Virus record (IMG/VR): IMGVR_UViG_3300020045_012035
Span: 1 to 46,685 of that record
DNA from: a virus
Lineage: Duplodnaviria > Caudoviricetes
Strand: one strand, 5' to 3'
DNA: 46,685 bases
The position numbers and the translations under genes were made by a program. A model generated the notes under the pieces. The model saw nothing but the letters and a program-made list of their open reading frames with translations. It did not search any database and had not been told where the DNA came from. Positions 20,597-44,609 of this stretch are shown here, piece by piece; the stretch's first letter is position 1, and each line of letters opens with the position of its first letter.

Positions 20597-22300
20597 TTGA
20601 GAAGAAACAATAACAATACTAGAAAACAGCGTTTAAACATATCTAAGTCGAATGTGAATCCAGTCAATCACTTCGACTTAGATATTCTATCGCAACAATC
20701 TCAAGAACTAGAAATAGCCAAACAATTAGCTCTTGAAAAAGCCTTTACATCTAATGATATTGGGCAAATAATGAAAGCTCAAAACTATCTAAAAAAAATA
20801 GAAAAGAAGGAAGAAGTAGATTATAAGTCTATGTTAGTAGATCCTATGGATCTAAGTAGCTCTTTCGGATATAAACATAAGCCTTTCAATGTAAGTTACG
20901 AAGTTCTTAGAGCTATGAGTAGAACTCATATCGTTAAATCTATTATTGAAACAAGAAAGGAGCAAGTATCTGATTTTTGTACGCCTAGAGATAATAAAAA
21001 CGGTATAGGGTTTATTGTTCAAAAGAAAAAAGGATATCTATATAAGCCTGACGCAAAGCCGGAAAAATTAAGCAAAGGAGAAGAACAAAGAATTGAGCAA
21101 ATTATTACATTTATAATGAATTGTGGCTCGATTCAAAATCAATGGCACGCAGACGATTTTGACGACTTTACACGTAAAGTTATTGGAGATTCTTTAACAT
21201 TAGATCAAGCTACTTTTGAAGTCCCTAGAAACAAAGGAGGACAGCCTATAGAATTTTTAGCTACAGATGCTGCTACTTTTCGAATAGCTGATTCTTATGA
21301 AGATGAACAAAGTAAAACAGAGGTATTGATTAACGGATACGCTCCCTCTTATGTTCAATTATATAACGGTAACGTTATATCAGAATTCTACCCTTGGGAA
21401 ATGTGTTTTGGAACAAGAAATCCAAGCACTAACATTTATACTAACGGTTACGGTAGAAGTGAGCTTGAAGATATGATCCAAACGGTCACAGCTATTTTAA
21501 ATGCAGACACTTATAATGCAAACTTCTTTAAAGTAGGAAGTGCACCAAAAGGTATATTGAAATATACTGGAAATATCAATCCAAACACTGTTGAAGATTT
21601 CAGAAGGCAGTGGACAGCTCAAGTGTCAGGAGTGATGAATATGCATAAAATTCCAATGATTAATGCTGATAAATTAGACTTCATATCTACAGGTCAGAAT
21701 AATAAAGATATGGAATTTAGTAAGTTTCAAGAGTTTTTAATTAAAATCACCTGCGCTATATATAAGATGGATCCAGCAGAAGTTGGATTTCCAATGCAAG
21801 GAACATCAGAAGCTTCCGGACTTGGAGGTGATGGAGGAACTAAGTCTAAAATTCAACATAGTCGATCTAAAGGATTAAAACCTCTTCTTCGTAAATATGA
21901 AAAATGGATAAATAAATATATTGTAGCTCCACTAGATCCTGGATACGAATTCAAATTTGTTGGATTAGATGACGATGATGATGAAGAAGCTGAGCTCGAT
22001 AAAGATATCAAAGCTTTAAGTAATTTTATGACATTAAATGAAATTAGAGCTAAAAGAAATTTACCTGCTATTGAAAACGGAGATGTAGTTCTAAATCCAA
22101 CTTACTTACAAGCAATAGGACAAGCTCAACAAGGAAATGAAGAAAGCAATCAAGCTGTAGATAATATGAATGGTGGAGGAGATGAAGATCAAAATCCATT
22201 TATGGATAATGAAGAGGAAGAAAATCCTTTCATGAAAAGCTTACAAGACGAATTAGGAGTACTTTTAAATCAAGACTTATGGAACAACAAGAGCAATTAA
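20597..22300 (+). CDS. Portal protein
   Basis: IIETRKEQV, DSLTLDQATFE, GYGRSELE, NANFFKVGSAPKGIL, KDMEF, DPAEVGF, SKGLKPLL, TLNEIRA; TTG start is uncertain. Confidence 0.9.
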   Translation: MRRNNNNTRKQRLNISKSNVNPVNHFDLDILSQQSQELEIAKQLALEKAFTSNDIGQIMKAQNYLKKIEKKEEVDYKSMLVDPMDLSSSFGYKHKPFNVSYEVLRAMSRTHIVKSIIETRKEQVSDFCTPRDNKNGIGFIVQKKKGYLYKPDAKPEKLSKGEEQRIEQIITFIMNCGSIQNQWHADDFDDFTRKVIGDSLTLDQATFEVPRNKGGQPIEFLATDAATFRIADSYEDEQSKTEVLINGYAPSYVQLYNGNVISEFYPWEMCFGTRNPSTNIYTNGYGRSELEDMIQTVTAILNADTYNANFFKVGSAPKGILKYTGNINPNTVEDFRRQWTAQVSGVMNMHKIPMINADKLDFISTGQNNKDMEFSKFQEFLIKITCAIYKMDPAEVGFPMQGTSEASGLGGDGGTKSKIQHSRSKGLKPLLRKYEKWINKYIVAPLDPGYEFKFVGLDDDDDEEAELDKDIKALSNFMTLNEIRAKRNLPAIENGDVVLNPTYLQAIGQAQQGNEESNQAVDNMNGGGDEDQNPFMDNEEEENPFMKSLQDELGVLLNQDLWNNKSN

Positions 22301-22824
22301 CGCCACAACAACACAGAGAGCTTATTAAATCCAACATCGTTGGAAGCTATAATAATCCTGAAAAATTCATTGAGAAATCAAATAATATTGATGCTTTCAA
22401 CGAATTAATTAAAGGAGATATCTCGGGGAATTTCTCTTATCGAGAATCAATTAGTATCGTTAAGAAGGGTAAGGAGATTAAAGAAAAGCTTGAATTACTA
22501 TTAGCATTACATCTAACAGAGTTTACAACTTTACAGCAACAAATATCTCAAATTCCTATTGACTTAGGAGTTCAACCAACTGCTTCGGATACTAGTGATT
22601 GGTATGATGTTAAAGTAGCTTTCCTACCAGCTCGCTATACTTGGGAGGTTATTGATCAAGCAAACGAAGATGTTAGAGAGTCTTATAGAAATTATAATCG
22701 ATTAGTTGAAAGAATTATCGATTGTCAAGTTGAACAAAAAATGATTAACGCAATGTTAAAAAATCTTGACGATAATAAAGACTATCCTCTTTCAGTTAAA
22801 CAAATCATTGCTTTAAATCTTTAA
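22279..22824 (+). CDS. Putative internal head protein
   Basis: N-terminal LTPQQHRELIKSNIVGSYN shared with 27694 ORF; LIKS/IEKS/LIKG sites. Confidence 0.55.
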   Translation: MEQQEQLTPQQHRELIKSNIVGSYNNPEKFIEKSNNIDAFNELIKGDISGNFSYRESISIVKKGKEIKEKLELLLALHLTEFTTLQQQISQIPIDLGVQPTASDTSDWYDVKVAFLPARYTWEVIDQANEDVRESYRNYNRLVERIIDCQVEQKMINAMLKNLDDNKDYPLSVKQIIALNL

Positions 22825-23542: not shown

Positions 23543-26206
23543 ATGTCAGATAATTTACAAAAAGGAGGAAAGGGAGCTGCTGTAGGGACTAGAAAAGAGT
23601 TTGGTGGTCGCGAGTATATTAAAACTGCAGACGGTTGGAAGTTTGTAGGAAAGGGTAAAGGAAAGGGAGCTCAAAAACATATAGATGCTCATAAAACTTC
23701 TACAGACGATAAGCAACCTAAATCTACACACTCTCCGGAAGAATTATCTACCCATGCCTCTAATACCTCAACAGAAGCTCTTACTGCAGTGGCTCATGAT
23801 AAAACTAAGCCAAAAGAACTTCAACAAGCTGCTCAACAAGAGTTAAGTCATAGAGATAAGGGTAGTAAAGAAATTGAACCTGAAAAAACTGAAAAGAAAG
23901 AAGAGCCTAAGAAGGAGGAAAAGAAGGAAGAAAAACCTAAACCTGCTGAAAAGAAAGAAGATAAAAAAGATGCTCACGAAAAGAGAGGATTTGATGAGTC
24001 TAAAGGAGATGAAGATGTGACTGGTAAGGGTGAGAAAATTCCAGCAGATTATGGTTTACCTAATGAAGAAAGCGCTGTAGAAGGAAAGATCTTAGCTCAA
24101 AAAGATGGAGCTGATAAATTGAGTGTTAAAGACGAAGGATTTAGTTTAGATCAACAAGAAGCTTTAACATCTGAAAGCGATAGCAATGAAGAAGATGATA
24201 TTAATCATAAATTTGAAGCGTTTGGTCGCTTCGCTGCTGGTGTAATTAAAGGACGTATGAAATCTTTAATAGCCTACGGCAGCGGAGGTGTGGGCAAAAC
24301 TTACACTGTAACCACGGAGTTAGAGAAGGCTGGAAAGAAAATATTTGATCCTGAAATTCACGATCCAGGTGAAAGTGGTTATGATTATGTAAAAATTACA
24401 GGGAAAGCTCTATCTTTAGATGCTGATATTATTACTCCTAATGGTATAGTAAAGAATAAAGATTTATCTGTAGGGATGGAAGTTAGTACTTTCGATGGTT
24501 CGTCTGCTAAGATAAATCAGATATTTGACCAAGAAGATGAGCAATTGTATGAGGTATTATTTAATGATGGCTCATCTGTTGAATGTACACTTAATCATTT
24601 ATGGCAAGTAAGGGATCGTATTTCTAGAAATAATAAAGTAGTAGATTTAAAATATATTTTAAATAAAAATGTAGTAAAGCGTTATCCTAATTATAACTTA
24701 TTTCGCTTTGCAATTCCATTAACAGCGCCTGTAGAATATAATAATCCCTCTATCGTTGAAATACATCCTTATTTATTAGGTTATTTAATAGGAGATGGTA
24801 ATATATGCGAAAGTGCAGGATCTATGAATATTGCAATAGGAGTAGAAGATCAAGAGTATGTTTTAAATAAAATCTCTTCATTATTACCGCTAAATCATAA
24901 ATTAGTACCAATATCGACTACAGAGAACTGGGATAAAATAAGCTTTAGAATACAAGGAGATAAAAATTTAAATATTAATTTGATTCGTAGAGCTATTATT
25001 TCATTAGATTTACAAAAAACTTGTTATAATAAATCTATTCCTGAGATATGTTTTACTATGTGTGTAGAAGATCGAATACATTTACTACAAGGATTATTTG
25101 ATTCAGACGGTACAGTAGAAAAGACAGGTAGTGCTCAGTTTTGCTCAGTTAGTAAACAATTAGCTATTGATGTGCGCAAATTAGCAAAATCTTTAGGAGC
25201 GTGGAGTTCTTTTAAAGAGAGAGTGGTACCTAGTAGTAATACGCTGAGATATGAAGTAGTAGTAAATCTACCTAAAACTATAAAATGCTGTTCTTTACCA
25301 CGTAAAGCTATACGCTTAGATAATAGAAGTAAAGATATTCCGGAATTAACAATAGTAGCAGTTAACCTTACTCGTATAGCTCCTAGTAGATGTATATCTA
25401 TAGATAGCGACGATCATTTATACTTAACGAATGATTTTATTGTCACACATAATTGTACTGCTGCAGCTGTATATCAAACTATGTATGAGCATAATGGTAA
25501 AATACTTCTCTTTGACGACTGCGATAGCGTACTTCAAGATGAAAATGCAATCAATCTATTCAAAGGAGCTCTTGATACATCAGGAGATGGAAGTATTAAC
25601 TGGGGAAGTGCTAAAAAACTAAAAGACAGCAACGGAGAGGAGATGCCTGGTAAATTTGCATTTAACGGAAGCGCAATGTTCGTTTCTAATCTTGATATTG
25701 GAAAAGATAAAAACGGAAAACAGTCAAATCCTCAATTACAACCAATTGTTTCTCGTGGATACGGTATTAATTTAACGATGGATAAAAAGAAAACAATGGA
25801 TCGCATTACTCATATTGCTACAAGTAAAGATGGCAAATTGACGAATCTTAAATTTCCAGGAACGCCAGATTATACTCACGAAGACATGAAAGCTGTATTA
25901 GAGTATATGGGTAAGAATAAAGATAAAGCGTCAGATTTAAATGTAAGAACAGTAGGAACTTTGCTTGCAATCAAAAAAGATGCAGATGAAGCAGGAGTGA
26001 ATTGGCAAGATGATGCAAAGTACGTTTATCTAAGAAAATCAAATACTCCTGATATCTATAATGGAGGATTATTCAACGCTAGAAAAGACGTTATACAAAA
26101 GTCTTTAGGAATTGATGAGCGAACTATTGGAGATAAGAAAATTGATTGGTGTACATTAAAGAAAGCATCTTTAAGAGGAAATGTAAAAAGTCTCGAATAC
26201 AGATAA
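23543..26206 (+). CDS. Putative head-cargo AAA+ ATPase with the shared N-terminal module and an intein
   Basis: Start reassigned to ATG 23543 (MSDNLQKGG); Walker A GSGGVGKT, Walker B LLFDDCD; K/E-rich linker. Confidence 0.8.
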   Translation: MSDNLQKGGKGAAVGTRKEFGGREYIKTADGWKFVGKGKGKGAQKHIDAHKTSTDDKQPKSTHSPEELSTHASNTSTEALTAVAHDKTKPKELQQAAQQELSHRDKGSKEIEPEKTEKKEEPKKEEKKEEKPKPAEKKEDKKDAHEKRGFDESKGDEDVTGKGEKIPADYGLPNEESAVEGKILAQKDGADKLSVKDEGFSLDQQEALTSESDSNEEDDINHKFEAFGRFAAGVIKGRMKSLIAYGSGGVGKTYTVTTELEKAGKKIFDPEIHDPGESGYDYVKITGKALSLDADIITPNGIVKNKDLSVGMEVSTFDGSSAKINQIFDQEDEQLYEVLFNDGSSVECTLNHLWQVRDRISRNNKVVDLKYILNKNVVKRYPNYNLFRFAIPLTAPVEYNNPSIVEIHPYLLGYLIGDGNICESAGSMNIAIGVEDQEYVLNKISSLLPLNHKLVPISTTENWDKISFRIQGDKNLNINLIRRAIISLDLQKTCYNKSIPEICFTMCVEDRIHLLQGLFDSDGTVEKTGSAQFCSVSKQLAIDVRKLAKSLGAWSSFKERVVPSSNTLRYEVVVNLPKTIKCCSLPRKAIRLDNRSKDIPELTIVAVNLTRIAPSRCISIDSDDHLYLTNDFIVTHNCTAAAVYQTMYEHNGKILLFDDCDSVLQDENAINLFKGALDTSGDGSINWGSAKKLKDSNGEEMPGKFAFNGSAMFVSNLDIGKDKNGKQSNPQLQPIVSRGYGINLTMDKKKTMDRITHIATSKDGKLTNLKFPGTPDYTHEDMKAVLEYMGKNKDKASDLNVRTVGTLLAIKKDADEAGVNWQDDAKYVYLRKSNTPDIYNGGLFNARKDVIQKSLGIDERTIGDKKIDWCTLKKASLRGNVKSLEYR
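24407..25453 (+). mobile_element. Class 3 intein with a LAGLIDADG homing endonuclease (349 aa)
   Basis: TGK|ALSLDADIITPNG ... IVTHN|C; block B CTLNHLW (W), block F SRCISI (C), block G THN (T) give the WCT signature; LLGYLIGDG and LQGLFDSDG. Confidence 0.92.
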
Positions 26207-26207
26207 A

Positions 26208-26260
26208 TATTTTACATACTTTTGTTGCATAATAATAAAATAGAAATTATCTTTACCTCA
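26208..26260 (+). promoter_or_regulatory. Repeated phage promoter inside the head module
   Basis: 51/53 identical to 13849-13901. Confidence 0.7.
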
Positions 26261-26277
26261 ATAAAAATAAATAAATC

Positions 26278-27456
26278 ATGTCAGATCAAAGTCAATATAA
26301 TTTCGACGAAGGAAGAAAAGCAATCATAACTGATAACTTACTAAAAAGCTATGGTATTGATCAATCAATCGAAAAATCTCAAGAAAATATCACTATTCCT
26401 AAAAAAGAATTTATCGATGAGCATGAGAAATTAGTTGACGTTCTTAACTCTCCTTCTCATACTGACGATAAAGAGGAGGCAGAAGATCAAGAAAAAGAAC
26501 TTAAACAAGTTACCAAATCTAATCAAGATACTCTTGAAAAAGGAGGTAAAAGAGCTGTTATTGGAGAAAAGCGTGAATTCAGCGGAAGAATGTATATCAA
26601 GACTGCAGACGGTTGGAAATTTTTTGGTAAAGGAACTGGAACTAAAGCTCAAGGTCATCATGAGTCTAGTAATTCTAAATCAGAAAGTAAGGTTGAAGAT
26701 AAAAACAACCCCTTTGGATTCGACAGTAAAGAGCAATATGATTCATATATACAGGGATTAGCTTCTCACTCTGTTAAGTTTGGACTTACAAAAGATGATT
26801 ATTGGACTTCTATTGACAATAAAGAAATTGCTGAAAAAATCAAAACACATTCAAGATCAGCAACGCCTACTAATGAGTTTAAGAAAATTCAAGCAGACGT
26901 AACTGCAGCTAAAAAGAAAATGAATGAAGTAAAGTCTGTAGCACAATCTGCAGGAATATCTCAAAAAGAATTTGATAAATTACATCCTGGAACCAAAAAA
27001 GAGCTAGAGAATAATACTAAGAAACAAGCTCCAGGACATATTGATAGTGTTAAGTATCAAGAAGAGGTTAGAGAAAAACATACTCCTAAAGAAGATAAGA
27101 AACAATCTTTTTCAGATTTGGAGAATGTTAAAGAAGATTTGAAAGATAAGTTTAAAGGATATAAATTCAAAGAAAGCGATAATACTTACGGCGGTAAAAC
27201 TATATCTTTTTCTAAAAACGATAGAAATGAAGATTCCTCATTTGATATTCAACAAAAAACTGAAAAAGGATTCTTCGTTAATATGATTACTAAGAAAGTA
27301 GTTTCTTCAACTAGTTTAGCTGATCCGTCTAAAAACTACCAAACTACATCAGCTCGAAGCGTAAGACATAAAACTATCAAAACATCCAATCACGTTGATA
27401 CTATGAAAGATGTTTATAAGCTTATCGATAGACATTTGAGTAAAATCAATAAATAA
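26278..27456 (+). CDS. Putative head-cargo protein with the shared 39-aa module
   Basis: Acidic propeptide-like N-terminus with LLKS/IEKS/VTKS, then LEK|GGKRAVIGEKREFSGRMYIKTADGWKFFGKG; basic C-terminus. Confidence 0.7.
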   Translation: MSDQSQYNFDEGRKAIITDNLLKSYGIDQSIEKSQENITIPKKEFIDEHEKLVDVLNSPSHTDDKEEAEDQEKELKQVTKSNQDTLEKGGKRAVIGEKREFSGRMYIKTADGWKFFGKGTGTKAQGHHESSNSKSESKVEDKNNPFGFDSKEQYDSYIQGLASHSVKFGLTKDDYWTSIDNKEIAEKIKTHSRSATPTNEFKKIQADVTAAKKKMNEVKSVAQSAGISQKEFDKLHPGTKKELENNTKKQAPGHIDSVKYQEEVREKHTPKEDKKQSFSDLENVKEDLKDKFKGYKFKESDNTYGGKTISFSKNDRNEDSSFDIQQKTEKGFFVNMITKKVVSSTSLADPSKNYQTTSARSVRHKTIKTSNHVDTMKDVYKLIDRHLSKINK

Positions 27457-27722
27457 TGTGCGATAAAGGAGAAATAGGAAACTTCTCTTACGAGAAGCAG
27501 AAAGATGGAACTTTTCTTTATAAAGCTAAAGAAAACACTCTATCTTCAAAAAAAGTGATTAAAAAAGCTCAATATAAGGAAAAACCTCAATATAAAGCTT
27601 TAGAACAGATCGAAAACAAATCTATAGCTAGATTTCAGAATGATTTAAAAACGACAGTAAAAAACGTAGTACAACTTCTAAATACAATATCAAATGAGCG
27701 GATTCAAACATCAAGAAAATAA
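27456..27722 (+). CDS. Small basic hypothetical protein in the head module
   Basis: 88-aa ORF, TAATG-coupled. Confidence 0.55.
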   Translation: MCDKGEIGNFSYEKQKDGTFLYKAKENTLSSKKVIKKAQYKEKPQYKALEQIENKSIARFQNDLKTTVKNVVQLLNTISNERIQTSRK

Positions 27723-28581
27723 AAGAGAGATTTCAAACAATATCGCATCGCTTTACGGAACTGAGCATCCTACAGAAGCTATTCAAAAAAGTGAGCAACA
27801 AAACCTATCTCCTTTTGAACATAGAGAGTTAGTAAAATCTCAGATAGCTGGAAGTTTCAATGAAAATACTCCTAGTTTATCTGACGAAGAATTAGAGAAA
27901 AGTGCTGAGGACACTCTTGAAAAAGGAGGAAAACGTGCTGTTATTGGAGAAAGAAGACAATTTGGAGGAAGAGAATATATTAAAACCAAAGATGGCTGGA
28001 AATTTCATGGCAAAGGAAGTGGAGTAAAAGCTACAAGTCATCGTGAAGGAGCTTTAGATCATCATGTAGAAACAGGTAAAGGTGCTGGAGAAAAGAAAGA
28101 AGAATCAGAGCATTCTAAATTATCTGATGCTGATTTAGAGCGTAGAAAAGAAGTAGCTACTAACTTAGGGAGTGCAGCTTTAAAAACTGGCAAACCTGAG
28201 GATGTAACTAAATTAATGCAAGAAGTGCACGCTATCGAAACTGAACAAAAGAAAAGAGCAGAAAAAGAAGTTGGTAAAGTAGGAAAGCCTGACTCAATCA
28301 CTTTAGATAGAGATCATAAAGAAAAACCTACATCTAAACACATTGGAGATATGAGTGCTACAGATATGAAAGCTGCAGCAGACAAATTAGGTATCGACGT
28401 AAAAGGAAAATCAGTAAAGCAAGTACGCGAAGCTCTAACAGGAGCTAATATCGATAAGCAATTAGCTGATTTCAAAGCTAAGAAAGGAGATAATAAAGAA
28501 CCAACGCACGATCCGGAGACAGGAAGAGAATTGACTTCGTTAGAAAGAGCAGCTTTAAAAGCTCAAAGTGAGGGAAAGTAG
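27694..28581 (+). CDS. Putative head-cargo protein with the shared 39-aa module (short form)
   Basis: IQKS/LVKS/LEKS, then LEK|GGKRAVIGERRQFGGREYIKTKDGWKFHGKG. Confidence 0.7.
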   Translation: MSGFKHQENKREISNNIASLYGTEHPTEAIQKSEQQNLSPFEHRELVKSQIAGSFNENTPSLSDEELEKSAEDTLEKGGKRAVIGERRQFGGREYIKTKDGWKFHGKGSGVKATSHREGALDHHVETGKGAGEKKEESEHSKLSDADLERRKEVATNLGSAALKTGKPEDVTKLMQEVHAIETEQKKRAEKEVGKVGKPDSITLDRDHKEKPTSKHIGDMSATDMKAAADKLGIDVKGKSVKQVREALTGANIDKQLADFKAKKGDNKEPTHDPETGRELTSLERAALKAQSEGK

Positions 28582-28606
28582 ATAGCTCCTCCTCAAAAGA
28601 GGAGCT
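28572..28606 (+). promoter_or_regulatory. Programmed -1 ribosomal frameshift signal
   Basis: G GGA AAG heptamer (28572-28578) in frame just before TAG, 5-nt spacer, 8-bp stem AGCTCCTC/GAGGAGCT. Confidence 0.8.
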
Positions 28607-28895
28607 TCAATCAAAAATTCCACTTAGAGATATTAATCAAATCAAACGACTAGCTCAGTATCTTCAAGATAACTATAAGTCGATCGGTCAACATTATAAT
28701 TACAGCGAATACTTTTATTCAGTTTCAGAACCACTATCTTCTAAACAATTTCAAAAACTGAAAGACGAATACGAGAAGAAAGATCAAGAACTTACTAAAC
28801 TTACTGATCAATATCATGCAGATCAATTATATCAAGTCGATGATGAAAACTTTCGAGGATTAAATGGCGGAGGAGACTACGGATATAGAGATTAA
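28578..28895 (+). CDS. 105-aa -1 frame extension of the 27694 ORF (~400-aa long form)
   Basis: Open frame VDSSSSKEEL...GGGDYGYRD* with no ATG/GTG/TTG, closed upstream by TGA at 28569-28571. Confidence 0.75.
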   Translation, partial: VDSSSSKEELQSKIPLRDINQIKRLAQYLQDNYKSIGQHYNYSEYFYSVSEPLSSKQFQKLKDEYEKKDQELTKLTDQYHADQLYQVDDENFRGLNGGGDYGYRD

Positions 28896-28897
28896 TT

Positions 28898-29839
28898 ATG
28901 ACACTAACTCCACAACAAACCAACTCTCTTCTTGAGATAATTAACAATAATCAAGCTCTAATCATTGGACGTGAATTAGGGCTTGACTACTTATCTGATT
29001 ATGATAAGGAAATTTTAGAAAGGTTCGGAGTAGATCTTAACGAAATCTACTTACCGCAGACAGATACGATCTTCTCTTCATTCCATTTTGGTCTCCTAAG
29101 TGATAGTTTGAATAACATAGGATTTGCCGAAGATGTAACTTTCGACGATTTATACGAATATATTTCAAAAGGAGATTACATTCCTTTGACTACTCAAGAA
29201 TTAGCTACTATTGAAAGCATTAAAACACAATCATTAGCAAGTTTAAGATCAGTAAATAATAAAATTTTCCAGGATATTAATCAAATCCTTCCTAACTCAT
29301 CTAGATCTACTCAAGAAGAGTTCATTAAAAAAGAAGTCGAACAAGGAGTTCAATATAAAAAGACTGTTCGTGAAATAGCTAATGAAATAGCTCACAAGAC
29401 AGGAGATTGGACTAGAGATTTCGATAGAATAATTCAGTACAATTCTCAGAAAGCGTATGAAGAAGGAAAAGCAGCTGCTATTCAAAGACAATATGGAGAT
29501 GACGTTTATGTTTATAAGAATGTATATCAAGGAGCGTGTAAACATTGTATTAGATTATATCTAACAGCAGGATTAGGAAGTCAACCTAAGATCTTCAAAT
29601 TAAGCGAGTTAAAAGGTAATGGTTCGAATATAGGTAAAAAGGTAGCAGATTGGCTTCCGACCTTAGAACCATCGCATCCGTATTGCAGATGTAACCTAGT
29701 ATTTCTTTCAACCCTCCAACAAACTAACACTTGGAATAAGCAAAATAAGAAATTTAAGACTACTACCACAACAACTCCAACATCAAGACCACGTCCTAAG
29801 ATAAAAGCTATTGTAGGTGGTAAGGAAGTTTGGGTATAA
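28898..29839 (+). CDS. Head morphogenesis protein (MuF / SPP1 gp7-like)
   Basis: ACKHCIRLY...SHPYCRC motifs; position in the head module. Confidence 0.8.
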   Translation: MTLTPQQTNSLLEIINNNQALIIGRELGLDYLSDYDKEILERFGVDLNEIYLPQTDTIFSSFHFGLLSDSLNNIGFAEDVTFDDLYEYISKGDYIPLTTQELATIESIKTQSLASLRSVNNKIFQDINQILPNSSRSTQEEFIKKEVEQGVQYKKTVREIANEIAHKTGDWTRDFDRIIQYNSQKAYEEGKAAAIQRQYGDDVYVYKNVYQGACKHCIRLYLTAGLGSQPKIFKLSELKGNGSNIGKKVADWLPTLEPSHPYCRCNLVFLSTLQQTNTWNKQNKKFKTTTTTTPTSRPRPKIKAIVGGKEVWV

Positions 29840-29874: not shown

Positions 29875-30225
29875 ATGTTACACGATTTATTACTTAAAAA
29901 CGAAGAAGATACATTGCTTGGTATTGCTAAGATAGATATCTCTAATGATGAAACTAATATTGCTCAAAAACAAGTTAGTTTGAATTTTATCACTAAGGCT
30001 GAGCCACCATTTTCTTTCGATACAGAAGATGTTACTGCGTTTGAGTTAGAGCAAGAAAAAGTAGAGCGTTTTATTCAGCCTAAAAATTATTTGATGAGCG
30101 ATCTACTTTCAGATCTAACTGATATTGATATTGTAGCAGAATTTGATGGAGAGGAGTTAAATCCAGTCCCAACTACTACTACAACCACTGCAGCTCCAAC
30201 AACTACCACTACTACTGCGGGATAA
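29875..30225 (+). CDS. Acidic protein with a poly-Thr tail
   Basis: Ends PVPTTTTTTAAPTTTTTTAG. Confidence 0.6.
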   Translation: MLHDLLLKNEEDTLLGIAKIDISNDETNIAQKQVSLNFITKAEPPFSFDTEDVTAFELEQEKVERFIQPKNYLMSDLLSDLTDIDIVAEFDGEELNPVPTTTTTTAAPTTTTTTAG

Positions 30226-30952: not shown

Positions 30953-33484
30953 ATGAAGAAGAGTATATTACTACTATTACTTTTAATCAGTGGATCAATC
31001 ATATCGCAAACAAAAGTATACGATACACCTGTAAAATATAAACAAGTTTCTACGCTTAATTCGGTAACTACTACTACTCCAGTACCTGTTTTTGGAGCGG
31101 ATGGGTTATTGCAAAAAGTAATATTAGACGATTTACCGGTTTCTACACTGACGCAGGAGGCTTTAGATTTAAAACTTTCAAAAACAGGCGAAGTATTAAA
31201 TTATTCAACTGATTTCGATCCATTATTTAGTCAAGATCCGACAAGCCTAGTGGTTAAGAAAAGAACAATGCAGCCAGAATCTAGTAGATTCGATCCTACT
31301 CTAGCTCCTATATACGCATGGGGTGACAGTATGACGGATGGATACCTAACAACTAACTACCCTACTCAATTAACTGCGTTATTTGGCTACCCAGTAACAA
31401 ATAGAGGTGTAGGAGGTGAAAATTCTACTCAGATAAAAAACAGATTAGTAGCCGAAACCGCTGCTTATTCTAAATCAGTTATAATTTGGGTAGGCAGAAA
31501 CAATATCGGTAGTCCTGCTACGATTAAAGCAGATATTGCCACAATGATTTCGACTATAGGGCATACAAGATACTTAGTTGTTGGTGTAGTTAATTCCGCC
31601 ACAGAGCCAATAAACAGTGCGAACTGGACATTAATCACAACACTTAATAATGATCTTAAAGCGTTGTACGGCAGTAAGTTCGTTTCGATTAGGGAGCAGA
31701 TAGTAAGTAAATACAATCCTTCACTACCACAGGATGTTATAGATCACGCTAATGATGTACCGCCGGAATCTTTAAGGCTGCCAGCAGATCCTCTGCATTT
31801 GAATACAGCGGGTCAAACAGTAGTTGCTGAATTTTTTAATCAGAGACTTGGTAATATGTTCGACAAAAACGGATATTTGCAGAGTAAAGATTTTAAATAC
31901 TATTCTAATTTATATAGTGATTACATTTATAGAAATCTAAACGATACGTTTACCGGAATAAAATACTCCACAAACACAGGTACAACACAGATAAACGGCT
32001 TAGGCTTAACAAACAACGGCACTACTAGTAATTCGCAAGTTCTTTTAATCAATAATACAAGCACAGGAAACGGACTTACAATAAACAACACTGGAAGCAT
32101 AGGGCAATATACCATTAATGCATTAACTGGTACAGGGCAATATACGAGAAATCTTGCAGGAGGTAGTGGTTACGGAGGCGAAAACGTGGGCGCAGGGACA
32201 TTTATGAGTTTAAACAGTGCCACAGGGTCGTCAGGGTTTCTTTTAGTTTTTAGAAAAAACGGCGCGGCTACTAGCTCATTTGATCAAAACGGCATATTAA
32301 GAACTCCCCCTCCATTAATAACATCAGCCCCAGTTACGAGCGCGGGATCTTACGATTTCCTTACAAGAAATATAGTTACCGATCAAGTTGAGAAAATACC
32401 AAGTGCAAATGTTGCTACTTCTGCCAGCGTTGCATTGAAACAGGACGCTTTAGTTTCGGGAACTAATATAAAAACAGTAAACGGTAACGTATTACCAGGG
32501 AGCGGTAACGTTTCTATTGACATAAATGGAGCATTAAATGAGGGGAGCACAGCAATAGGAAAAACACTAAACCTTATGTCTGCGGATTTTACGCAAGTTG
32601 TACAGACAACACCTACAAATCTAAATATAAATCAGATAGATTTATCTAAATCTGCTGGAATCGCTAATGTAAGCGGAAATATGCATCTTTATGGATCTAA
32701 TCCGACTGGAGACAATCATATAAACTTAAACAATAGAACAGCGTCTGGGACAGCTTACTACAATTTTAATCCAAGTAACACCGCAGGAACTTACACTTTA
32801 TCCACCACAAGTGATATTACTTTACAAAATGTAGTAAACACTGCGCCAGAAGCTTATAAGGGAAGCAGTTATGTTTCTTTGTTGTATGGAGCAGCAGGAA
32901 GCACAAGCAGCGGTTTAGTTTCTGCGGATTTAACCAGCACAAATATTGGTGCTTTGCAGATACAGAATAATGCAGTTTTGTTGCAAAATGATAGTGCCAC
33001 AGATTTCGGAATATTTAAAGTTAACGGGGGACTTATTGATATAACTCAATCAAATATTACGGCGAGTAAAACAACTCATGTTGTGGTAGATACACCAACA
33101 GCAAATACTACCGTATCAGTGCCTGCTCCGTCCGTAGATGGTTCATATACTTTAGCATTAGAAAAATATAAAAGTTATGTAGCGGTACTAAATCAGACTG
33201 GAACTTCTGCGCCAGTTGCAACTGTGCTAGAAAATAGTTTGAGTGGAACTATCGTTTGGAGTTATGTGTCTACTGGTATATATGATGCTACTTTAGCTGG
33301 GGCGTTCAACAGTTCAAAAACCGCTGTTTTTTTCAACAAAGGCGAAGTTACAGGTACAACGTCAGGAAAGAGTGGTGCTTTCGTGAATACTTCTGATACC
33401 GTAAGAGTTATGACCGTTAGCAACGGTTCAAGCTCAAACGGAGAGGTTAACAAAGCAACTATCGAAATACGGGTTTATCCTTAA
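30953..33484 (+). CDS. SGNH/GDSL hydrolase fused to fibre-like beta-rich regions, with a signal-peptide-like N-terminus
   Basis: Blocks WGDSMT, NRGVGG, WVGRNN, DPLH; KQDALVSGTNIKTVNG fibre-like motif; N-terminus MKKSILLLLLLISGSIISQ. Confidence 0.75.
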   Translation: MKKSILLLLLLISGSIISQTKVYDTPVKYKQVSTLNSVTTTTPVPVFGADGLLQKVILDDLPVSTLTQEALDLKLSKTGEVLNYSTDFDPLFSQDPTSLVVKKRTMQPESSRFDPTLAPIYAWGDSMTDGYLTTNYPTQLTALFGYPVTNRGVGGENSTQIKNRLVAETAAYSKSVIIWVGRNNIGSPATIKADIATMISTIGHTRYLVVGVVNSATEPINSANWTLITTLNNDLKALYGSKFVSIREQIVSKYNPSLPQDVIDHANDVPPESLRLPADPLHLNTAGQTVVAEFFNQRLGNMFDKNGYLQSKDFKYYSNLYSDYIYRNLNDTFTGIKYSTNTGTTQINGLGLTNNGTTSNSQVLLINNTSTGNGLTINNTGSIGQYTINALTGTGQYTRNLAGGSGYGGENVGAGTFMSLNSATGSSGFLLVFRKNGAATSSFDQNGILRTPPPLITSAPVTSAGSYDFLTRNIVTDQVEKIPSANVATSASVALKQDALVSGTNIKTVNGNVLPGSGNVSIDINGALNEGSTAIGKTLNLMSADFTQVVQTTPTNLNINQIDLSKSAGIANVSGNMHLYGSNPTGDNHINLNNRTASGTAYYNFNPSNTAGTYTLSTTSDITLQNVVNTAPEAYKGSSYVSLLYGAAGSTSSGLVSADLTSTNIGALQIQNNAVLLQNDSATDFGIFKVNGGLIDITQSNITASKTTHVVVDTPTANTTVSVPAPSVDGSYTLALEKYKSYVAVLNQTGTSAPVATVLENSLSGTIVWSYVSTGIYDATLAGAFNSSKTAVFFNKGEVTGTTSGKSGAFVNTSDTVRVMTVSNGSSSNGEVNKATIEIRVYP

Positions 33485-35148: not shown

Positions 35149-35781
35149 ATGGAATTATTTAAAAAAGCTCTAGATACAATTTCGCAATTACTTCATCTTA
35201 AAAAAGATAAAGTACATTACGCTGATTGCATTATAAGAAATGAGAAAGGACAAATCTTATTGCTTCAAAGAAGTACTCAAGATGATTTTGAGCCTGGTAA
35301 GTGGTGTTTGCCTGGAGGAAAAATAGAGAAAGGAGAAGTTCCTGAATACGCAGCTGCTAGAGAATTGATTGAAGAAACACATCTCCAAACTCCTCTATCA
35401 TTTATTCAAGCAGTAGATAGAGACGATAGCATCTCTTTGTATTATGAGGGGTATGTAAAGTCTAGCGATAATATCATTCTTGATAACGAGGAGCATTATC
35501 AACTACAATGGGTTGATGTAGAAGAGATCGCTAAATTCGATCTACTATTAGATTTAAAAGACACATTAATGAATAAGATCGGATTACCAATCTATTCAAC
35601 AAAATTAATGCAGTTAGATATAGAAGATGTAACCGATTTGTTCAAAAGAAATGATTTGGTTATGAAAAGCTTCGATGCTGGACAGATGAGTACTCAAGAT
35701 TACTTCTACTGTAAAGATATAATCAAATCGCATCTAGATGAAATAGTTAAAGCTGCACAAGAACAAGGATTAATAAACTAA
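35149..35781 (+). CDS. Nudix hydrolase
   Basis: WCLPGGKIEKGEVPEYAAARELIEET Nudix box. Confidence 0.9.
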   Translation: MELFKKALDTISQLLHLKKDKVHYADCIIRNEKGQILLLQRSTQDDFEPGKWCLPGGKIEKGEVPEYAAARELIEETHLQTPLSFIQAVDRDDSISLYYEGYVKSSDNIILDNEEHYQLQWVDVEEIAKFDLLLDLKDTLMNKIGLPIYSTKLMQLDIEDVTDLFKRNDLVMKSFDAGQMSTQDYFYCKDIIKSHLDEIVKAAQEQGLIN

Positions 35782-35786
35782 ACGAG

Positions 35787-37406
35787 ATGAAAACAAATCA
35801 ACAATCATTAGATAAATTCAATTTCTTCATTCCTCTTGAATTGGAAAAAGGAACAGAAGAAAATGGAGGATTAGTTAAGATCAGTGGAGTGGCTTCTACA
35901 GACGCAAAAGACGATGATGGTGAAACATTAATTCCAGCAGGATTTGATTTCGCACCGCTTCTTCAAAGTGGCTTTCTAAATTGGAATCATCAAGCAAGAA
36001 CTACTTCTAAAGCTATTTGTGGAGAGCCTACTTCTGCTAAAATAATCAATAATGGAAAAGATTTCTTTATTGAGGGAGTCATTTATCCTAACGCGGAAGG
36101 AAAGAATGTTATAGAGTTAGCTGAAACTTTAGAGAAACACTCTCCTAATAGAAGATTAGGATTTTCTATTGAAGGACAAGCTATTGAAAGAGATATTTTT
36201 AATCCAAAAAAAGTACTGAGAGCTAAAATTACTGGTGTAGCTATAACGCAATGTCCAAAAAATCCAAACACTTTAATGAACATTATCAAAGGAGAATATG
36301 ATAATGATTTCGATAAAGAAGAGGAAGAAGAGGTTGAAGCTAAAGAAGGTGCAGAAGAAAAGCCGTTAGATAAAGCTATGACGGTTAATATTGATATTAA
36401 TCCTGAATCTGTAGAAGGTGCAGATAAAAAAAAGGAGTTGTCAAACGAATTAAAAAAGAGCGAAATTTACAATCAAATTTATAAACGCTACACAAATAGC
36501 TTTGAAAAAGCTGATCAAATTTATAATTTCATTAACAAAGTAAACGAAAAAAGCATGAATACTAATAACATCACTCCAGAAACGTTAGAAAAAGCATATA
36601 ATTTATTAGATCAATCTTTAGATTTGCAGAAAGGTGATGATCAAAAATCTTTAGAAGATGACGATAAAAACGATGAAGATTCTAAAAAAGATGAAGATAT
36701 CAAAAAATCCGAAGACGATGATTCAGATAAAGATTTAGATAAATCTGCTGACGCCGATGAAGACGATGAAGATTTTGAGAAAGCAATGAATTGTGAAGGA
36801 ATTGCAAAATCCTTTTTAGATAAAGGTATGAGTAAAGATGAAGTAGTGAAAGCTATGACTAGTGTAGGTATTTCTACTACGTTAGCAGAAACATCTTGCT
36901 CAAACTGTATCGCCCAAGCGAATGCTGAAAAAGACGGAGGACATATTGAAGCTTTATCTAAAAGTAACGAAAATGAGTTTGAGAAAGAAGAGTCAAACGC
37001 ACTCATGACCCAAATGCTTGATAAAAAATTTAGCGCCTTAGGTTTTATTTTAAAATCTCAAAGCGAGCAAATTGATAACTTAATTAAATCAAACACAGAA
37101 GTACAAAAAGAATTTCGAGATTTTAAAAATCAGCCGGAAGGTAGAAAATCTGTTACAACAGTAAAAGCTCTTGAAAGATTTGAGAAATCTGCCGACGGCA
37201 CTTCTACAGAGGTTTACGACTCAAGAAATGCAGCTGATATGAATTTATTGGGCGATCGTTTATTTAAAGAATATCAAATGATCAAATCTAACGGAGGCGA
37301 AGATCGCGGTCTAGAAAAAGCAGTATCAGATCTTGAAATTTCAAAAACAACAAATTTCGCAGCAATTTCACCTAGATTAAGACAATTAGGAATACAAGTT
37401 CAATAA
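35787..37406 (+). CDS. Prohead protease fused to an acidic scaffold
   Basis: ISGVASTDAKDDDGE, LNWNH, LGFSIEG, VAITQCPKNPNT (HK97/U35-like); acidic C-terminal half; directly precedes the capsid gene. Confidence 0.88.
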   Translation: MKTNQQSLDKFNFFIPLELEKGTEENGGLVKISGVASTDAKDDDGETLIPAGFDFAPLLQSGFLNWNHQARTTSKAICGEPTSAKIINNGKDFFIEGVIYPNAEGKNVIELAETLEKHSPNRRLGFSIEGQAIERDIFNPKKVLRAKITGVAITQCPKNPNTLMNIIKGEYDNDFDKEEEEEVEAKEGAEEKPLDKAMTVNIDINPESVEGADKKKELSNELKKSEIYNQIYKRYTNSFEKADQIYNFINKVNEKSMNTNNITPETLEKAYNLLDQSLDLQKGDDQKSLEDDDKNDEDSKKDEDIKKSEDDDSDKDLDKSADADEDDEDFEKAMNCEGIAKSFLDKGMSKDEVVKAMTSVGISTTLAETSCSNCIAQANAEKDGGHIEALSKSNENEFEKEESNALMTQMLDKKFSALGFILKSQSEQIDNLIKSNTEVQKEFRDFKNQPEGRKSVTTVKALERFEKSADGTSTEVYDSRNAADMNLLGDRLFKEYQMIKSNGGEDRGLEKAVSDLEISKTTNFAAISPRLRQLGIQVQ

Positions 37407-37460: not shown

Positions 37461-38933
37461 ATGACTTCAATCAATGATTATGCAGGAGAAGGATTCGTAG
37501 GTGGCCAAAGCGATGGTCAACTAGAACTTCAAAAAGCAATGTCTACTGGTCAAATTACCGGTAGAGACACAACAGGACAACCTTTAACTCAAGAACCATT
37601 AAAAGCTGAATCTTTAGAGAAAACTTTAAAATTACTTGAGTATAGAACGTCAGATATCAAATTAATGAATTTGATGCCAAAATTAACAGCTTACAACACT
37701 GTTGAGGAGTTCTTACAACTTTCTTCCTATGGTGCGCAAAGAGGAGGTTTCTACGATGAAGGAGAACTTTCTGACGTAGAAGATTCTACTTATATCAGAC
37801 GTGCAGAGCTTGTGAAATATATGCAAGTAACTGGTGAAGTTACTATTCAAGCTCAAATGGTACGCTCTTATGTAGATGCAATGCGTCAAGAGGTTGAGAA
37901 CAAAATGATGTGGATTTTAAGATTAGCGAACAAGTCATTGACTCATGCTGACTCTGAAGTAATTCCTCAACAATTCAATTCTATCTACAAACAACACGCA
38001 TCTGTTGGTGTAACTCAAGATTACTTATATCCAACATTCGAAGCTTATTACAGCTCAGAAGTAGTTATTGATTTAAGAGGTCAATCTCTTAAACAAGGCG
38101 ATTTAGAAGATGCTGCAGTTACTGTAGATGCTAATTATGGTAATGTTTCTCATTTATGTGCTCCTACAACTGTAATCTCTGCCTTAGCTAAAGATTATTA
38201 CGAAGTGCAAAGAATTATTCAAAATGGCACTTATAATGGAAATGTTAATAGTGTTCCTAAAGTGATCTCAACTACTCTTGGAGATGTTCAGCTAGTATCT
38301 GATAAGTTCATGAAAGTAGATCCGCCAAGAATGATCAATACTCCAGCTTCTTCTACGAAATCTCCAGGTGCTCCTACTGTATCTGCAGTAGCGTTAGTAG
38401 CAGATGCTAACAGTAAATATAAGACTGGTGAATTTGGAAACGTATTTTATGCAGTAACTGCTGTAAACAGATATGGAGAATCTAATTTAACACCGTTTGC
38501 AACAGCAGTAACATTAGCAGCTAATCAAGCGGTTAATATCACCTTAGCTCCAGGTGCTGGCTCAATTGTAGCATCAGGATATGTTATTTACAGAACTAAA
38601 GTAACGACAGCAGGAACACCTACTGATTTGGAATTTTTCCCAATCTTCGCAGTGTCGGAATCTGCAAGAGCTAATGGATTTAATGGAGGTGCTGCAGGTA
38701 TTGTAAGAGATAGAGGATATTTCTTACCTGATACAGAACAAGCCTTTGTTACTGATCTAGTTGATGAAGTTCTTTCATTCAAACAATTGGCGCCTATTTC
38801 TAAATTAGATTTAGCTGTTCAATCTATGAGTAGAAGATTTATCTGCTTCCTTTTCGGAACTCCTCAGCTTTATGCTCCGAAAAAAGTGATAAGATTCATT
38901 AATGCAGGAAAAAAATATACTCCAGTAGTATAA
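37461..38933 (+). CDS. Major capsid protein
   Basis: LQK|AMSTG...PLKAESLEKTLK, AYNTVEEF, FKQLAPISKLDLA, QLYAPKK resemble SPO1/Twort-type capsid proteins. Confidence 0.92.
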   Translation: MTSINDYAGEGFVGGQSDGQLELQKAMSTGQITGRDTTGQPLTQEPLKAESLEKTLKLLEYRTSDIKLMNLMPKLTAYNTVEEFLQLSSYGAQRGGFYDEGELSDVEDSTYIRRAELVKYMQVTGEVTIQAQMVRSYVDAMRQEVENKMMWILRLANKSLTHADSEVIPQQFNSIYKQHASVGVTQDYLYPTFEAYYSSEVVIDLRGQSLKQGDLEDAAVTVDANYGNVSHLCAPTTVISALAKDYYEVQRIIQNGTYNGNVNSVPKVISTTLGDVQLVSDKFMKVDPPRMINTPASSTKSPGAPTVSAVALVADANSKYKTGEFGNVFYAVTAVNRYGESNLTPFATAVTLAANQAVNITLAPGAGSIVASGYVIYRTKVTTAGTPTDLEFFPIFAVSESARANGFNGGAAGIVRDRGYFLPDTEQAFVTDLVDEVLSFKQLAPISKLDLAVQSMSRRFICFLFGTPQLYAPKKVIRFINAGKKYTPVV

Positions 38934-39046: not shown

Positions 39047-39565
39047 ATGAAAACATTAGTAACAGAACAAGCGTTCAAATTCGGACAGAAAAACATCATT
39101 CCTTTTGCTGGAGAAGTGAGCATTTCATTGACCGGAACAATCGAGGTAGAAGACGACATTGCTCAGTCAGTTGTAGATGCAGATTGTGGATTCTCTTTTC
39201 AAGATGTAATTGTCGATGAAACAACTACGACAACTACTGCAGCTCCTACCACTACAACTACTACAATTGTAGAAGAAGCTACTACCACAACCACAATCGA
39301 CGAAATCAACACTAAACCAAAACAAGATTTAGGTAATGATGATTTAGGAGATTTAGGAGCTGGTCCAACAGGAGATGTGATTGGTGATCAAATTATCGAC
39401 ACAACAACAACAACCACAACAAATATCTCTATCAATGAAGCTAAAGATGAGCTTAATAAGCAAACTCTAGCGCAATTGAAAGAACTTGCTAAAGACTTTC
39501 CTTCTGCTGAATGGAGAGCTTTAAGTAAAGAAAAATTAGTTGATTACATAGTTTCAAAACTATAA
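39047..39565 (+). CDS. Poly-Thr protein with a small helical C-terminal domain
   Basis: Four Thr tracts; C-terminal TLAQLKELAK...LSKEKLVDYI resembles Rho-N/HeH domains. Confidence 0.6.
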   Translation: MKTLVTEQAFKFGQKNIIPFAGEVSISLTGTIEVEDDIAQSVVDADCGFSFQDVIVDETTTTTTAAPTTTTTTIVEEATTTTTIDEINTKPKQDLGNDDLGDLGAGPTGDVIGDQIIDTTTTTTTNISINEAKDELNKQTLAQLKELAKDFPSAEWRALSKEKLVDYIVSKL

Positions 39566-42792: not shown

Positions 42793-42984
42793 ATGACAAC
42801 GACTACTACAACTACTAAAGAGAAAGTTAAAGAGCAGCGAAAAATTGACATTTTCGCGCTTTTAGACACTCAAGCTCTAACAAGAGCTGAGCGCTCTTAT
42901 TATGAAAAACATTATAAAGAGCAGTATAAAGATCAATCGAACACTATTGAGGAGTGGTTAAAAATAATTAAATTTATTCATTAA
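42793..42984 (+). CDS. Small protein before the tail sheath gene
   Basis: 63 aa, starts MTTTTTTT. Confidence 0.5.
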   Translation: MTTTTTTTKEKVKEQRKIDIFALLDTQALTRAERSYYEKHYKEQYKDQSNTIEEWLKIIKFIH

Positions 42985-42986
42985 AT

Positions 42987-44609
42987 ATGGCAACATCAAT
43001 TGTAGTTAATGGTAAAACCATTAAGCGTCCAGGAGTTTACGCTCTAACTAAAAGTGGAATTAAATATCCAGCACAAAATCTTTCTTACGGAAATATATGT
43101 ATTATTGATAATGGTGCAGGCGCAGGTTTTGCGGGAGGAGCAGGAGTTTCAGGAACATTAACTCAAGGAGTAGATAGTGTTTATGAAATCAGTACGATTC
43201 AGCAATATCTTAGCTTTATGAAAGGGGGAGCTCTATGGGATCTTGGAGAACCTTTATTCAAACCATCTAAAGCAGCTAATATTCCAGGAGTTTCTAAGGT
43301 TTATTTCATCAAAGCTGCGACAACAGTTAACGCTGAAATAACTTACGCATTTGAGAATGGAGGAGTTATTTTTCAAACATTAGATGAAGGACTAGGAGCT
43401 AACGGAATAACGGCGTCAGGAATTTTAACTAAAGGTTATGCTTGTAAGTTTATAGCTAGTACAATTAACGCCGGTAAATACATAGTTGAATTTTATCACG
43501 GAAGTTTCACAGGACTAGATCCTTTGAATAACTTACCTTACGACGGTATTTTAGCAGCAGATTCTACAGCAGTTATGTTTTTAACTACACCTGAGTTAAC
43601 TTTAGTGCAAGATTTAATAGACTGGTGCTTAACTTCAAATGAATTTAAAGCAGTCTTTAAATTGAAAATAGGATATACAGCAACGGGAGCTTTTACTCCT
43701 GACGACATCACTGATAATGCTGGATATAAATTAGCTACAGGAGGGACTGAAACTTATGATGCTACAGGATTTAGTAATGCTATTTTAGCTATTAAAGATC
43801 TAGATAATACTTTCTTTTTATCCTTAGACTCTGGAACAAGCTCTACAAGCTTGAGTAATGAAAAAATTCTAGATTTCATTAACAACGAATCTAAGTATGA
43901 GAAATTCATGTATGTTGCTGGAGGCTACGATAAAACTACTTTTGCAGGATCTACAAACACTTCTGAATCTACCGCGAAGTATTATGATAGCGATAAAGTA
44001 GTGGTTATTCACGGAGGTCTTAAAAAGACTACTCGCAACGGATTTATTCTAAAAAGTCAATTGTATAAAGCAGCTTTAGTTTTGGGTAGAACTTGCGGAT
44101 TGCCTCCTCAAACTCCAATAACATTCAAAGATCTTAATATAGATGGGGAGATTCATAAGTTATCAGACAATGAAAAAGAATTCGCTTTAGATTTCGGAAT
44201 TTTAACTACACATTTCGATAATGAGTTGGGCTATCATGTTATTCAACAAGGTATCAATTCGCTGCAACAAAACTCCTATCTTGTAAATGAAGATGGAACA
44301 TCTCACGATATAGCAGTAAGAAGAATTACAGCTCAATTAAACAAAGAGATTTGTGTAAATGCTAAGAAAGTGTTTTTCGGCAAAAACGAAGGACCTAATC
44401 GAAACACTATTACAGAGGAAGATATAAAAGCGTGGTTAGAAGGTTTCCTTCAAACTAAAACAGCCTCTTCATTAGAAGACAATCTTATTTTGAAATTTGG
44501 AAATATTAACGTTGTAGTGCAAGCTGATAATTATTTTGCCTCATACGAGTTTACACCAAACTATCCAATTTCAAAAATAGTGTTTACCGGAATCATTTTA
44601 GAAAATTAA
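42987..44609 (+). CDS. Contractile tail sheath protein
   Basis: KTIKRPGVY N-terminus; PITFK, IQQGINS, IAVRRI, C-terminal FTPNYPISKI. Confidence 0.9.
   Translation: MATSIVVNGKTIKRPGVYALTKSGIKYPAQNLSYGNICIIDNGAGAGFAGGAGVSGTLTQGVDSVYEISTIQQYLSFMKGGALWDLGEPLFKPSKAANIPGVSKVYFIKAATTVNAEITYAFENGGVIFQTLDEGLGANGITASGILTKGYACKFIASTINAGKYIVEFYHGSFTGLDPLNNLPYDGILAADSTAVMFLTTPELTLVQDLIDWCLTSNEFKAVFKLKIGYTATGAFTPDDITDNAGYKLATGGTETYDATGFSNAILAIKDLDNTFFLSLDSGTSSTSLSNEKILDFINNESKYEKFMYVAGGYDKTTFAGSTNTSESTAKYYDSDKVVVIHGGLKKTTRNGFILKSQLYKAALVLGRTCGLPPQTPITFKDLNIDGEIHKLSDNEKEFALDFGILTTHFDNELGYHVIQQGINSLQQNSYLVNEDGTSHDIAVRRITAQLNKEICVNAKKVFFGKNEGPNRNTITEEDIKAWLEGFLQTKTASSLEDNLILKFGNINVVVQADNYFASYEFTPNYPISKIVFTGIILEN

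Follow-up and report, generated by a model that had tools for sequence, protein, structure and literature searches.

Why would three neighbouring phage genes encode the same short domain in front of unrelated payloads? The question is raised by a 46.7-kb virus record (IMG/VR record IMGVR_UViG_3300020045_012035, 46,685 nucleotides, analysed over its whole length and called the window here), in which three genes named by their start positions, 23543, 26278 and 27694 (cargo genes 1 to 3), lie between the portal gene (20597) and a MuF-like gene (28898). A preliminary description had noted this arrangement and proposed that each protein consists of a targeting propeptide, a cleavage site, a common module and a variable effector. 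We find that the module recurs well beyond this record, nearly always behind a predicted prohead-protease site. Since one and the same domain stands behind a predicted cut site and before unrelated payloads, it probably acts as a plug-in handle: the proteins that bear it would be loaded into the head and travel with the DNA into the cell.

A conserved module without a described relative

The three module copies lie where they had been reported, each opening on the Gly after Leu-(Glu/Gln)-Lys (Table 1), and are 67-74% identical to one another in protein and 65-74% in DNA. When a profile of 14 sequences from outside the window was compared with 802 reading-frame segments of the window, it recovered the three copies at E <= 1.1e-14, with the next best segment at E 1.2. 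The 39-residue length originally given describes what the three window copies share, but family-wide the core is only ~25 residues, roughly P/A-I-G-E/T-I-R-x-W/F-G-G-K-x-Y-x-K-T-x-x-G-W, and the tail GKGxGxxAxxH is specific to a subclade. Two module alignments (A4 and A7) have invariant Gly, Lys and Trp positions. As identical residues of copies within one locus use identical codons in only 44% of cases, selection on the module, judged from its codons, acts at the protein level; the same scrambling disfavours a DNA recombination tract as the origin of the likeness.

AlphaFold models the module as three antiparallel strands (a beta-meander; predicted local distance difference test score 83-87 from a 34-row alignment), and identical strands are obtained from a single sequence. 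From the strand register, the conserved Arg, Trp/Phe, Tyr, Lys and Trp would share one face. No described domain was matched in the libraries searched, in agreement with the preliminary description. None of 11 module sequences matched Pfam at E <= 10, sequence searches of the PDB returned crystallin and transthyretin noise only, and an Atlas search yielded no usable feature match; in PHROGs, one unannotated family (phrog_4272) was weakly matched by 10 of 34 module members (best E 1.4e-4). VIA structure searches with a 51-residue module model reached Z scores of 2.7 and 2.8 at best, values too low to tell a known fold from a new one, and the search with an AP2 model matched nothing anywhere, controls included. 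We take the module to resemble the three-stranded beta-sheet domains of the AP2 and WW types, in being a small antiparallel sheet with Trp, Tyr, Arg and Lys; its loops are shorter, however, and with no sequence or structure match the likeness is one of resemblance only. No paper describing the module was found in the literature searched, which included few subscription journals.

Relatives were collected with two profiles. The one that contained the cleavage site found 177 proteins, of which the best 120 were used; a core-only profile, lacking the cleavage-site columns, matched 961 protein-cluster representatives at E <= 0.001 among 1.84 billion, and of the best 150 used, 93 were new. When five short queries were run against 50,697 phage records, credible copies were present in Chryseobacterium phage MA9V-3 and Leptospira phage LE1 only, with no match in any Herelleviridae record. 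Whole-record searches located five copies in MA9V-3, all inside the head cluster at 88.5-99.8 kb, two in LE1 and none in DAC19. A head gene (portal, MuF, protease, capsid or neck homologue) is present in 128 of the 138 module loci of at least 8 kb. Module matches in L010/L032 (a tail-type protein) and L063 were judged to be due to chance (L and P numbers are our labels for loci and proteins). A Dysgonomonas sp. BGC7 contig holds an orphan site-plus-module with no payload, outside any head cluster (L062:9740-10099), and three module genes occur within a complete head cluster on a contig labelled as a Saccharibacteria metagenome-assembled genome, likely a mis-binned phage (L065).

Coupling of the module to a predicted prohead-protease site

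Because the first 120 proteins are biased towards the site that their profile contained, the weight for coupling falls on two unbiased sets. A site precedes 140 of the 156 copies in the 93 new core-profile proteins, and 59 of 63 unique cores found with a site-blind DNA pattern, among the matches listed. The four site-less cores are a chance match, a frame that opens after a stop, a Met start at the module and a degenerate orthologue of gene 23543. Over all 289 unique copies (213 proteins), hydrophobic-x-Lys followed by Gly, Ser or Ala occurs in the 14-residue upstream window of 268, compared with 7.7% of random windows, and the spacing from site to module is 4 or 5 residues in 256 of these. 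The first copy of a chain is preceded by a site in 210 of 213 proteins, the remaining misses being later copies, and the cassettes of a long chain usually each come with a site of their own. The claim that the module always begins right after the cut therefore holds for ~93% of copies; the departures are mostly later copies in chains, with a few genes that start at the module. In one locus (L120:5987-10090) a sole Met stands directly before Gly-Gly-Lys-Arg, and its removal would yield the same N-terminus as cleavage.

A second site commonly lies ~8 residues upstream of the first. The mean charge is -2.5 over the 19 residues before the site and +5.2 over the 34 residues after it, where it is positive in every case; all proteins measured switch from acidic to basic across the site. 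Leaders, which end in Lys, range from 7 residues to several hundred. The notion of a dedicated targeting propeptide is unsupported, as leaders are 10 residues or shorter in 15 of 210.

Across the related loci, the motif was observed 266 times against 57 expected in 28 proteases, 253 against 74 in Nudix proteins and 143 against 86 in portals; the figures are 40 against 59 for MuF, 8 against 24 for neck proteins and 30 against 16 for eight sheaths. It lies within the first 60 residues of 35 of 36 capsid proteins. The exception, the A511 capsid protein, has Ala-Leu-Lys-Ser, and its record (X91069) starts the mature peptide at Ser24, after Lys23. One PDB chain of the window's capsid family lacks 24 N-terminal residues that another has. 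In its distribution, the motif behaves like an assemblin/HK97-type prohead-protease site, common to the scaffold and the capsid N-terminus and accompanied by a protease with a His/Ser pair. From the motif in the scaffold and in the capsid protein, together with the A511 record, packaging of the cargo and its cleavage after Lys are very probable. The window's tail sheath (42987-44609) has 6 motif matches against 2.5 expected, for which we have no explanation and which cautions on motif specificity.

Diverse payloads, and other tags in the same slot

The C-termini behind the module in the window are unrelated, as had been claimed: an AAA+ ATPase, a basic region and a helical region. Related proteins carry a wider assortment. 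Pfam matches at E <= 0.001 were found in 39 of 151 scanned carriers; polyvalent-protein domains exceeded the cut-off in 14 of the 151, including PBECR1 (5), LPD1 (3), InPase (2), ART-PolyVal with RadC, Kinase-PolyVal, DdrB-ParB and RelA/SpoT. Other payloads are SAM lyase, topoisomerase IB, PARP, VIP2-type ART, Nudix, and HEAT or LRR domains, and some chains (P0104, P0161, P0177) combine several domains of disparate activity. The Pfam scan of the three window cargo proteins revealed no polyvalent-protein domain; each of these proteins has one recognisable payload. The idea that the payloads serve anti-defence or takeover draws support from effector-type domains in relatives, but the window's own three are not recognisable as such. 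New payloads are likely gained by fusion behind the site-plus-module cassette. On each count by which the preliminary description had suggested judging a profile of the module (location among head genes, a preceding Lys site, diverse payloads), the family conforms.

The slot behind the site is not reserved for the module. A second, unrelated tag, of the type Gly-Glu-Gly-Ser-x-Gly-Gly-Lys...His-Thr-Lys-Ser-Gly-Lys-Pro-Ile-Tyr, occupies it in 11 segments of 10 proteins (for example P0002, P0011, P0052 and P0119), often in the same genome as the module, and is preceded by the site in 13 of 13 cases in loci such as L023, L095 and L107; it is absent from the window. In LE1, methylase-helicase and ParB proteins have a common third basic-aromatic N-terminal motif after the site, and DAC19 has a single occurrence of a fourth tag type (L033:8116-14052, L033:23576-26188; L034:27339-29006).

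What the module may do

In the account that we favour, precursors of the module proteins would be built into the prohead, and the head protease would cut them at the hydrophobic-x-Lys/Gly motif, leaving the module as the new N-terminus. The module would then grip packaged DNA and keep the attached payload in the head until it enters with the genome; a chain with several cassettes would yield several products, each with its own tag. Taken whole, we regard this account as evenly poised between right and wrong. The site and the acidic leader most likely account for recruitment, with the module acting after cleavage, because module-less proteins that bear sites share the cluster and the second tag fills the same slot. 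Delivery of the cargo into the cell is probable, by analogy with T4 and given payloads with host substrates, and DNA as the partner of the module, suggested by charge and predicted surface, has about equal chances of being right or wrong. The module does not serve as the universal loading or ejection signal: it is not needed by all cargo, because the Nudix protein 35149 and gene 22279 bear sites and have no module, and DAC19 has no copy at all. A bolder version is possible but rather doubtful, namely that a protease-unmasked tag of 25 residues, drawn from an interchangeable set, would alone suffice for any fused protein to leave with the genome, a delivery code that SPO1-like phages would use in Bacteroidetes, in Leptospira and in other hosts; if true, this would make it the first defined ejection signal and a counterpart to the T4 loading signal.

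Several observations weigh against the favoured account. Plain DNA binding leaves the strict spacing between site and module without explanation, and the greater likeness of copies within a locus than between loci (65% versus 51% identity) also fits a co-evolving protein partner. Twenty-one of the 289 copies have no site; they include that of P0183/L021, an orthologue of gene 23543, and those in genes whose start coincides with the module. DAC19 shares the head genes and yet has no module. The module loci overlap and are not independent, many being near-identical gut-phage contigs. The window's three payloads are no known effectors, and most payloads in the family are without an identity, since 112 of the 151 scanned carriers have no Pfam match. 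Finally, the papers examined offer no virion proteome for a phage with the module: the MA9V-3 paper contains no mass spectrometry, and LE1 is not among the phages analysed in PMC6078989.

The module might instead be a protein-docking address, directed to a protease exosite, the inner capsid surface, the portal or the tape measure, that loads cargo or queues its ejection. The nearly fixed site spacing would suit such a role, as would leaders as short as that of gene 23543, in which there is little room for another address; lineage-specific flavours of the module persist despite scrambled synonymous sites, and the conserved aromatics could make a peptide-binding face. Docking is nevertheless unlikely on balance, given that module-less proteins with the same sites (such as the Nudix proteins) lie in the same cluster and that a second, unrelated tag uses the same slot. 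As an obligatory partner of the module, MuF is disfavoured, because DAC19 has MuF without the module, and L065 has three module genes with no MuF detected in 20 kb.

It is decidedly unlikely that the proteins, once packaged and cut, stay in the head, where module and basic payloads would neutralise or organise DNA or aid maturation without any delivery. The basic payloads 2 and 3 of the window would fit such a role, as would the SAP-like segment of gene 27694, which encodes no enzyme, and one MA9V-3 copy that closes its protein with no payload behind it; relatives, however, carry SAM lyase, RelA/SpoT, kinase, ART and RNase-like domains behind the module, all with cellular substrates. It is highly improbable that the module merely travels along with the cleavage site, as a passenger or an anchor for recombination, and lacks any protein function of its own, for although payloads are swapped directly behind it, genomes hold 0 to 5 copies and an orphan copy exists in Dysgonomonas, its key residues are invariant while synonymous sites are scrambled, and the window copies have diverged in DNA.

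How capsid proteins are selected for ejection is an open question: T4 provided a loading signal, and no retained exit signal is described in those parts of the comparison papers cited below. The module is a concrete, short candidate for one, with two cultured phages, MA9V-3 and LE1, available for testing. It is also a search handle: sequences behind the tag are candidate day-zero phage effectors, and since so many carriers have no Pfam domain, the 961 clusters amount to a mined list of candidate anti-defence or takeover proteins. Were the tag portable, it could permit protein delivery into Bacteroidetes, where tools are scarce.

The cargo genes and their surroundings

The window carries genes for terminase, portal, MuF-like protein, holin, endolysin, Nudix hydrolase, head protease, major capsid protein and tail sheath. 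It belongs to an SPO1-like myovirus, for which MA9V-3 is the nearest cultured phage; its capsid protein matched 404 phage records, chiefly of Herelleviridae type, and is 81% identical to that of MA9V-3. The host is presumably a member of the Bacteroidetes, since MA9V-3 is a Chryseobacterium phage. Features are collected in Table 1.

Table 1. Features of the head cluster of the window (a slash marks the predicted cut)
Feature	Position	Strand	Details and evidence
Portal protein	20597..22300	+	Hydrophobic-x-Lys sites: 6, 2.4 expected
Module-less protein, 4 sites	22279..22824	+	Leader stretch common with gene 27694; sequence
Cargo gene 1: 7-residue leader, site, module, acidic linker, intein-split AAA+ ATPase	23543..26206	+	phrog_1250
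Predicted prohead-protease site LQK/G, gene 1	23555..23566	+	Sequence, motif statistics
Module copy 1	23564..23680	+	Net charge +7
Intein, 349 residues, LAGLIDADG endonuclease	24407..25453	+	Inserted between the Walker A and Walker B regions; first residue Ala, last two HN, then Cys
Cargo gene 2: 88-residue acidic multi-site leader, module, helical linker, C-terminal alpha/beta domain of no known family	26278..27456	+	
Predicted site LEK/G, gene 2	26533..26544	+	Sequence
Module copy 2	26542..26658	+	Profile match, sequence
Small conserved gene without module	27456..27722	+	Homologues adjoin module genes in close relatives
Cargo gene 3: 77-residue acidic leader, module, helices, SAP/Rho-N-like segment, Gly-Lys end at slippery site	27694..28581	+	
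Predicted site LEK/G, gene 3	27916..27927	+	Sequence
Module copy 3	27925..28041	+	Predicted three-stranded antiparallel sheet
SAP/Rho-N-like helix-extension-helix segment (residues 212-268), predicted nucleic-acid binder	28327..28497	+	Structure comparison
Predicted -1 frameshift signal: GGGAAAG (28572-28578), stop, 8-bp hairpin (28584-28606)	28572..28606	+	Sequence, folding
-1 frame extension, 107 residues, reaching MuF start	28572..28895	+	67% identity to same frame in one related contig
MuF-like minor head protein	28898..29839	+	phrog_115, weak, E 0.001; no site enrichment
Nudix hydrolase, 5 sites, without module	35149..35781	+	In relatives extended by site, module and payload
Prohead protease with acidic scaffold-like tail	35787..37406	+	Invariant His68, Ser127; 19 sites, 2.7 expected
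SPO1/Herelleviridae-type major capsid protein	37461..38933	+	One site LQK/A at residues 23-26

The AAA+ domain of cargo gene 1 shows a weak clamp-loader likeness. Its intein, unmentioned in the preliminary description, is missing from the orthologues P0116 and that of MA9V-3; in another orthologue, P0085, there is a LAGLIDADG domain as well, and the sequence that follows the Walker A motif differs. The intein begins with Ala and has Trp, Cys and Thr at the positions of class 3 inteins. A helical-hairpin-like motif after module 1 (23690-23860) recurs, by eye, behind the module in gut-phage proteins (L027, L029). The payload of gene 26278 has 263 residues and an isoelectric point of 9.4; the isoelectric points predicted for the mature proteins are 6.7, 9.5 and 9.3 for genes 1 to 3.

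The SAP/Rho-N-like segment of gene 27694 matched predicted models with template modelling scores of 0.64-0.81, every one below our bar for naming a domain, and one orthologue (P0018) gave a weak SAP match. Orthologues keep the leader, the module and the SAP-like segment, and exchange the parts between and after them. The leader (27790-27860) has a stretch ending in I-x-x-S-F/Y in common with the module-less gene 22279 (22279-22400); similar motifs recur, by eye, in many leaders and make a candidate loading helix.

The optional frameshift extension proposed for gene 27694 is supported. The gene ends G GGA AAG TAG, with a hairpin 5 nucleotides past the heptamer (z score -2.57; 4 of 200 shuffled sequences fold equally well), and in one related contig the heptamer is preserved, the hairpin is longer and the -1 frame is 67% identical, although the payload upstream differs. 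The heptamer is the slippery site of the lambda tail chaperone. Eleven of 120 module proteins have a Gly-Lys C-terminus. A metagenome scan for the frameshift signal gave 12 matches, none homologous.

Elsewhere in the cluster, a GDSL-lipase-like protein with a beta-rich tail is encoded between the MuF and lysis genes (30953-33484), a slot that in MA9V-3 holds a different gene of 1459 residues, and several structural genes contain poly-threonine tracts (29760-29775, 30190-30220, 39220-39420, 42796-42816).

Comparison with known head-cargo systems

The papers compared here are cited in part, and what is said of each is confined to the part cited. Polyvalent proteins (Iyer et al. 2017, PMC5512222) are encoded by late head-cluster genes as mixed chains of domains and are predicted to be packaged, processed and injected. 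The module genes likewise lie among late head genes, and payloads in the family include PBECR, LPD1, InPase, ART, kinase, RadC, DdrB-ParB and RelA/SpoT domains. There, however, most processing is credited to domains of the zincin metallopeptidase type or to a fused assemblin peptidase, and targeting to the head is explained by fusion with MuF, whereas here a short tag is shared behind a predicted site for a prohead protease acting in trans; no such common, retained tag is described in the parts cited of this paper or of PMC9503650. The comparison covers the LPD families represented in Pfam. The window's three proteins have none of the polyvalent signature domains.

MuF-fused effectors (PMC9503650) also join a constant, head-associated N-terminal part to enzymes that vary at the C-terminus, and their genes lie close to those for portal and Nudix. 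Here, MuF is a separate gene and the constant part is ten times smaller, with as many as five copies in a genome and three in a chain; no open reading frame with a module was labelled MuF in the loci examined. The capsid, protease and portal families, and maturation of the capsid protein after Lys, are those of the Herelleviridae/SPO1-type head (A511, X91069; SPO1 gp6.1, structure 9vel), and the five short queries matched the module in none of the Herelleviridae records searched.

Long propeptides with multiple sites are known from the SPN3US/PhiKZ ejection proteins, where one protease cuts capsid, portal, itself and cargo (PMC10052503), and several predicted sites per propeptide are found here as well. 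The specificity in those phages is for A-x-E, their ejection proteins form families of paralogues, and the part cited describes no N-terminal module that they all retain; the same source cautions that most head proteins are uncut and that motifs alone are no proof of cleavage.

A further parallel is offered by the T4 internal proteins, which lose a 10-residue propeptide and are ejected into the host as basic products (PMC9026906). As in these proteins and Alt, a propeptide ending in a prohead-protease site precedes unrelated payloads, with mature products predicted here to be basic, that of gene 1 excepted. The module proteins have no T4-type capsid targeting sequence (CTS), that is, no conserved 10-residue propeptide that ends in Glu and is removed. 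In T4 the shared element is the propeptide that is lost on cleavage after Glu, whereas here it is a domain predicted to fold, which would be retained after a predicted cut behind Lys. Cargo that is packaged in the head, processed and co-injected is already known from T4, SPN3US, MuF fusions and polyvalent proteins; the new element is the short tag that would stay.

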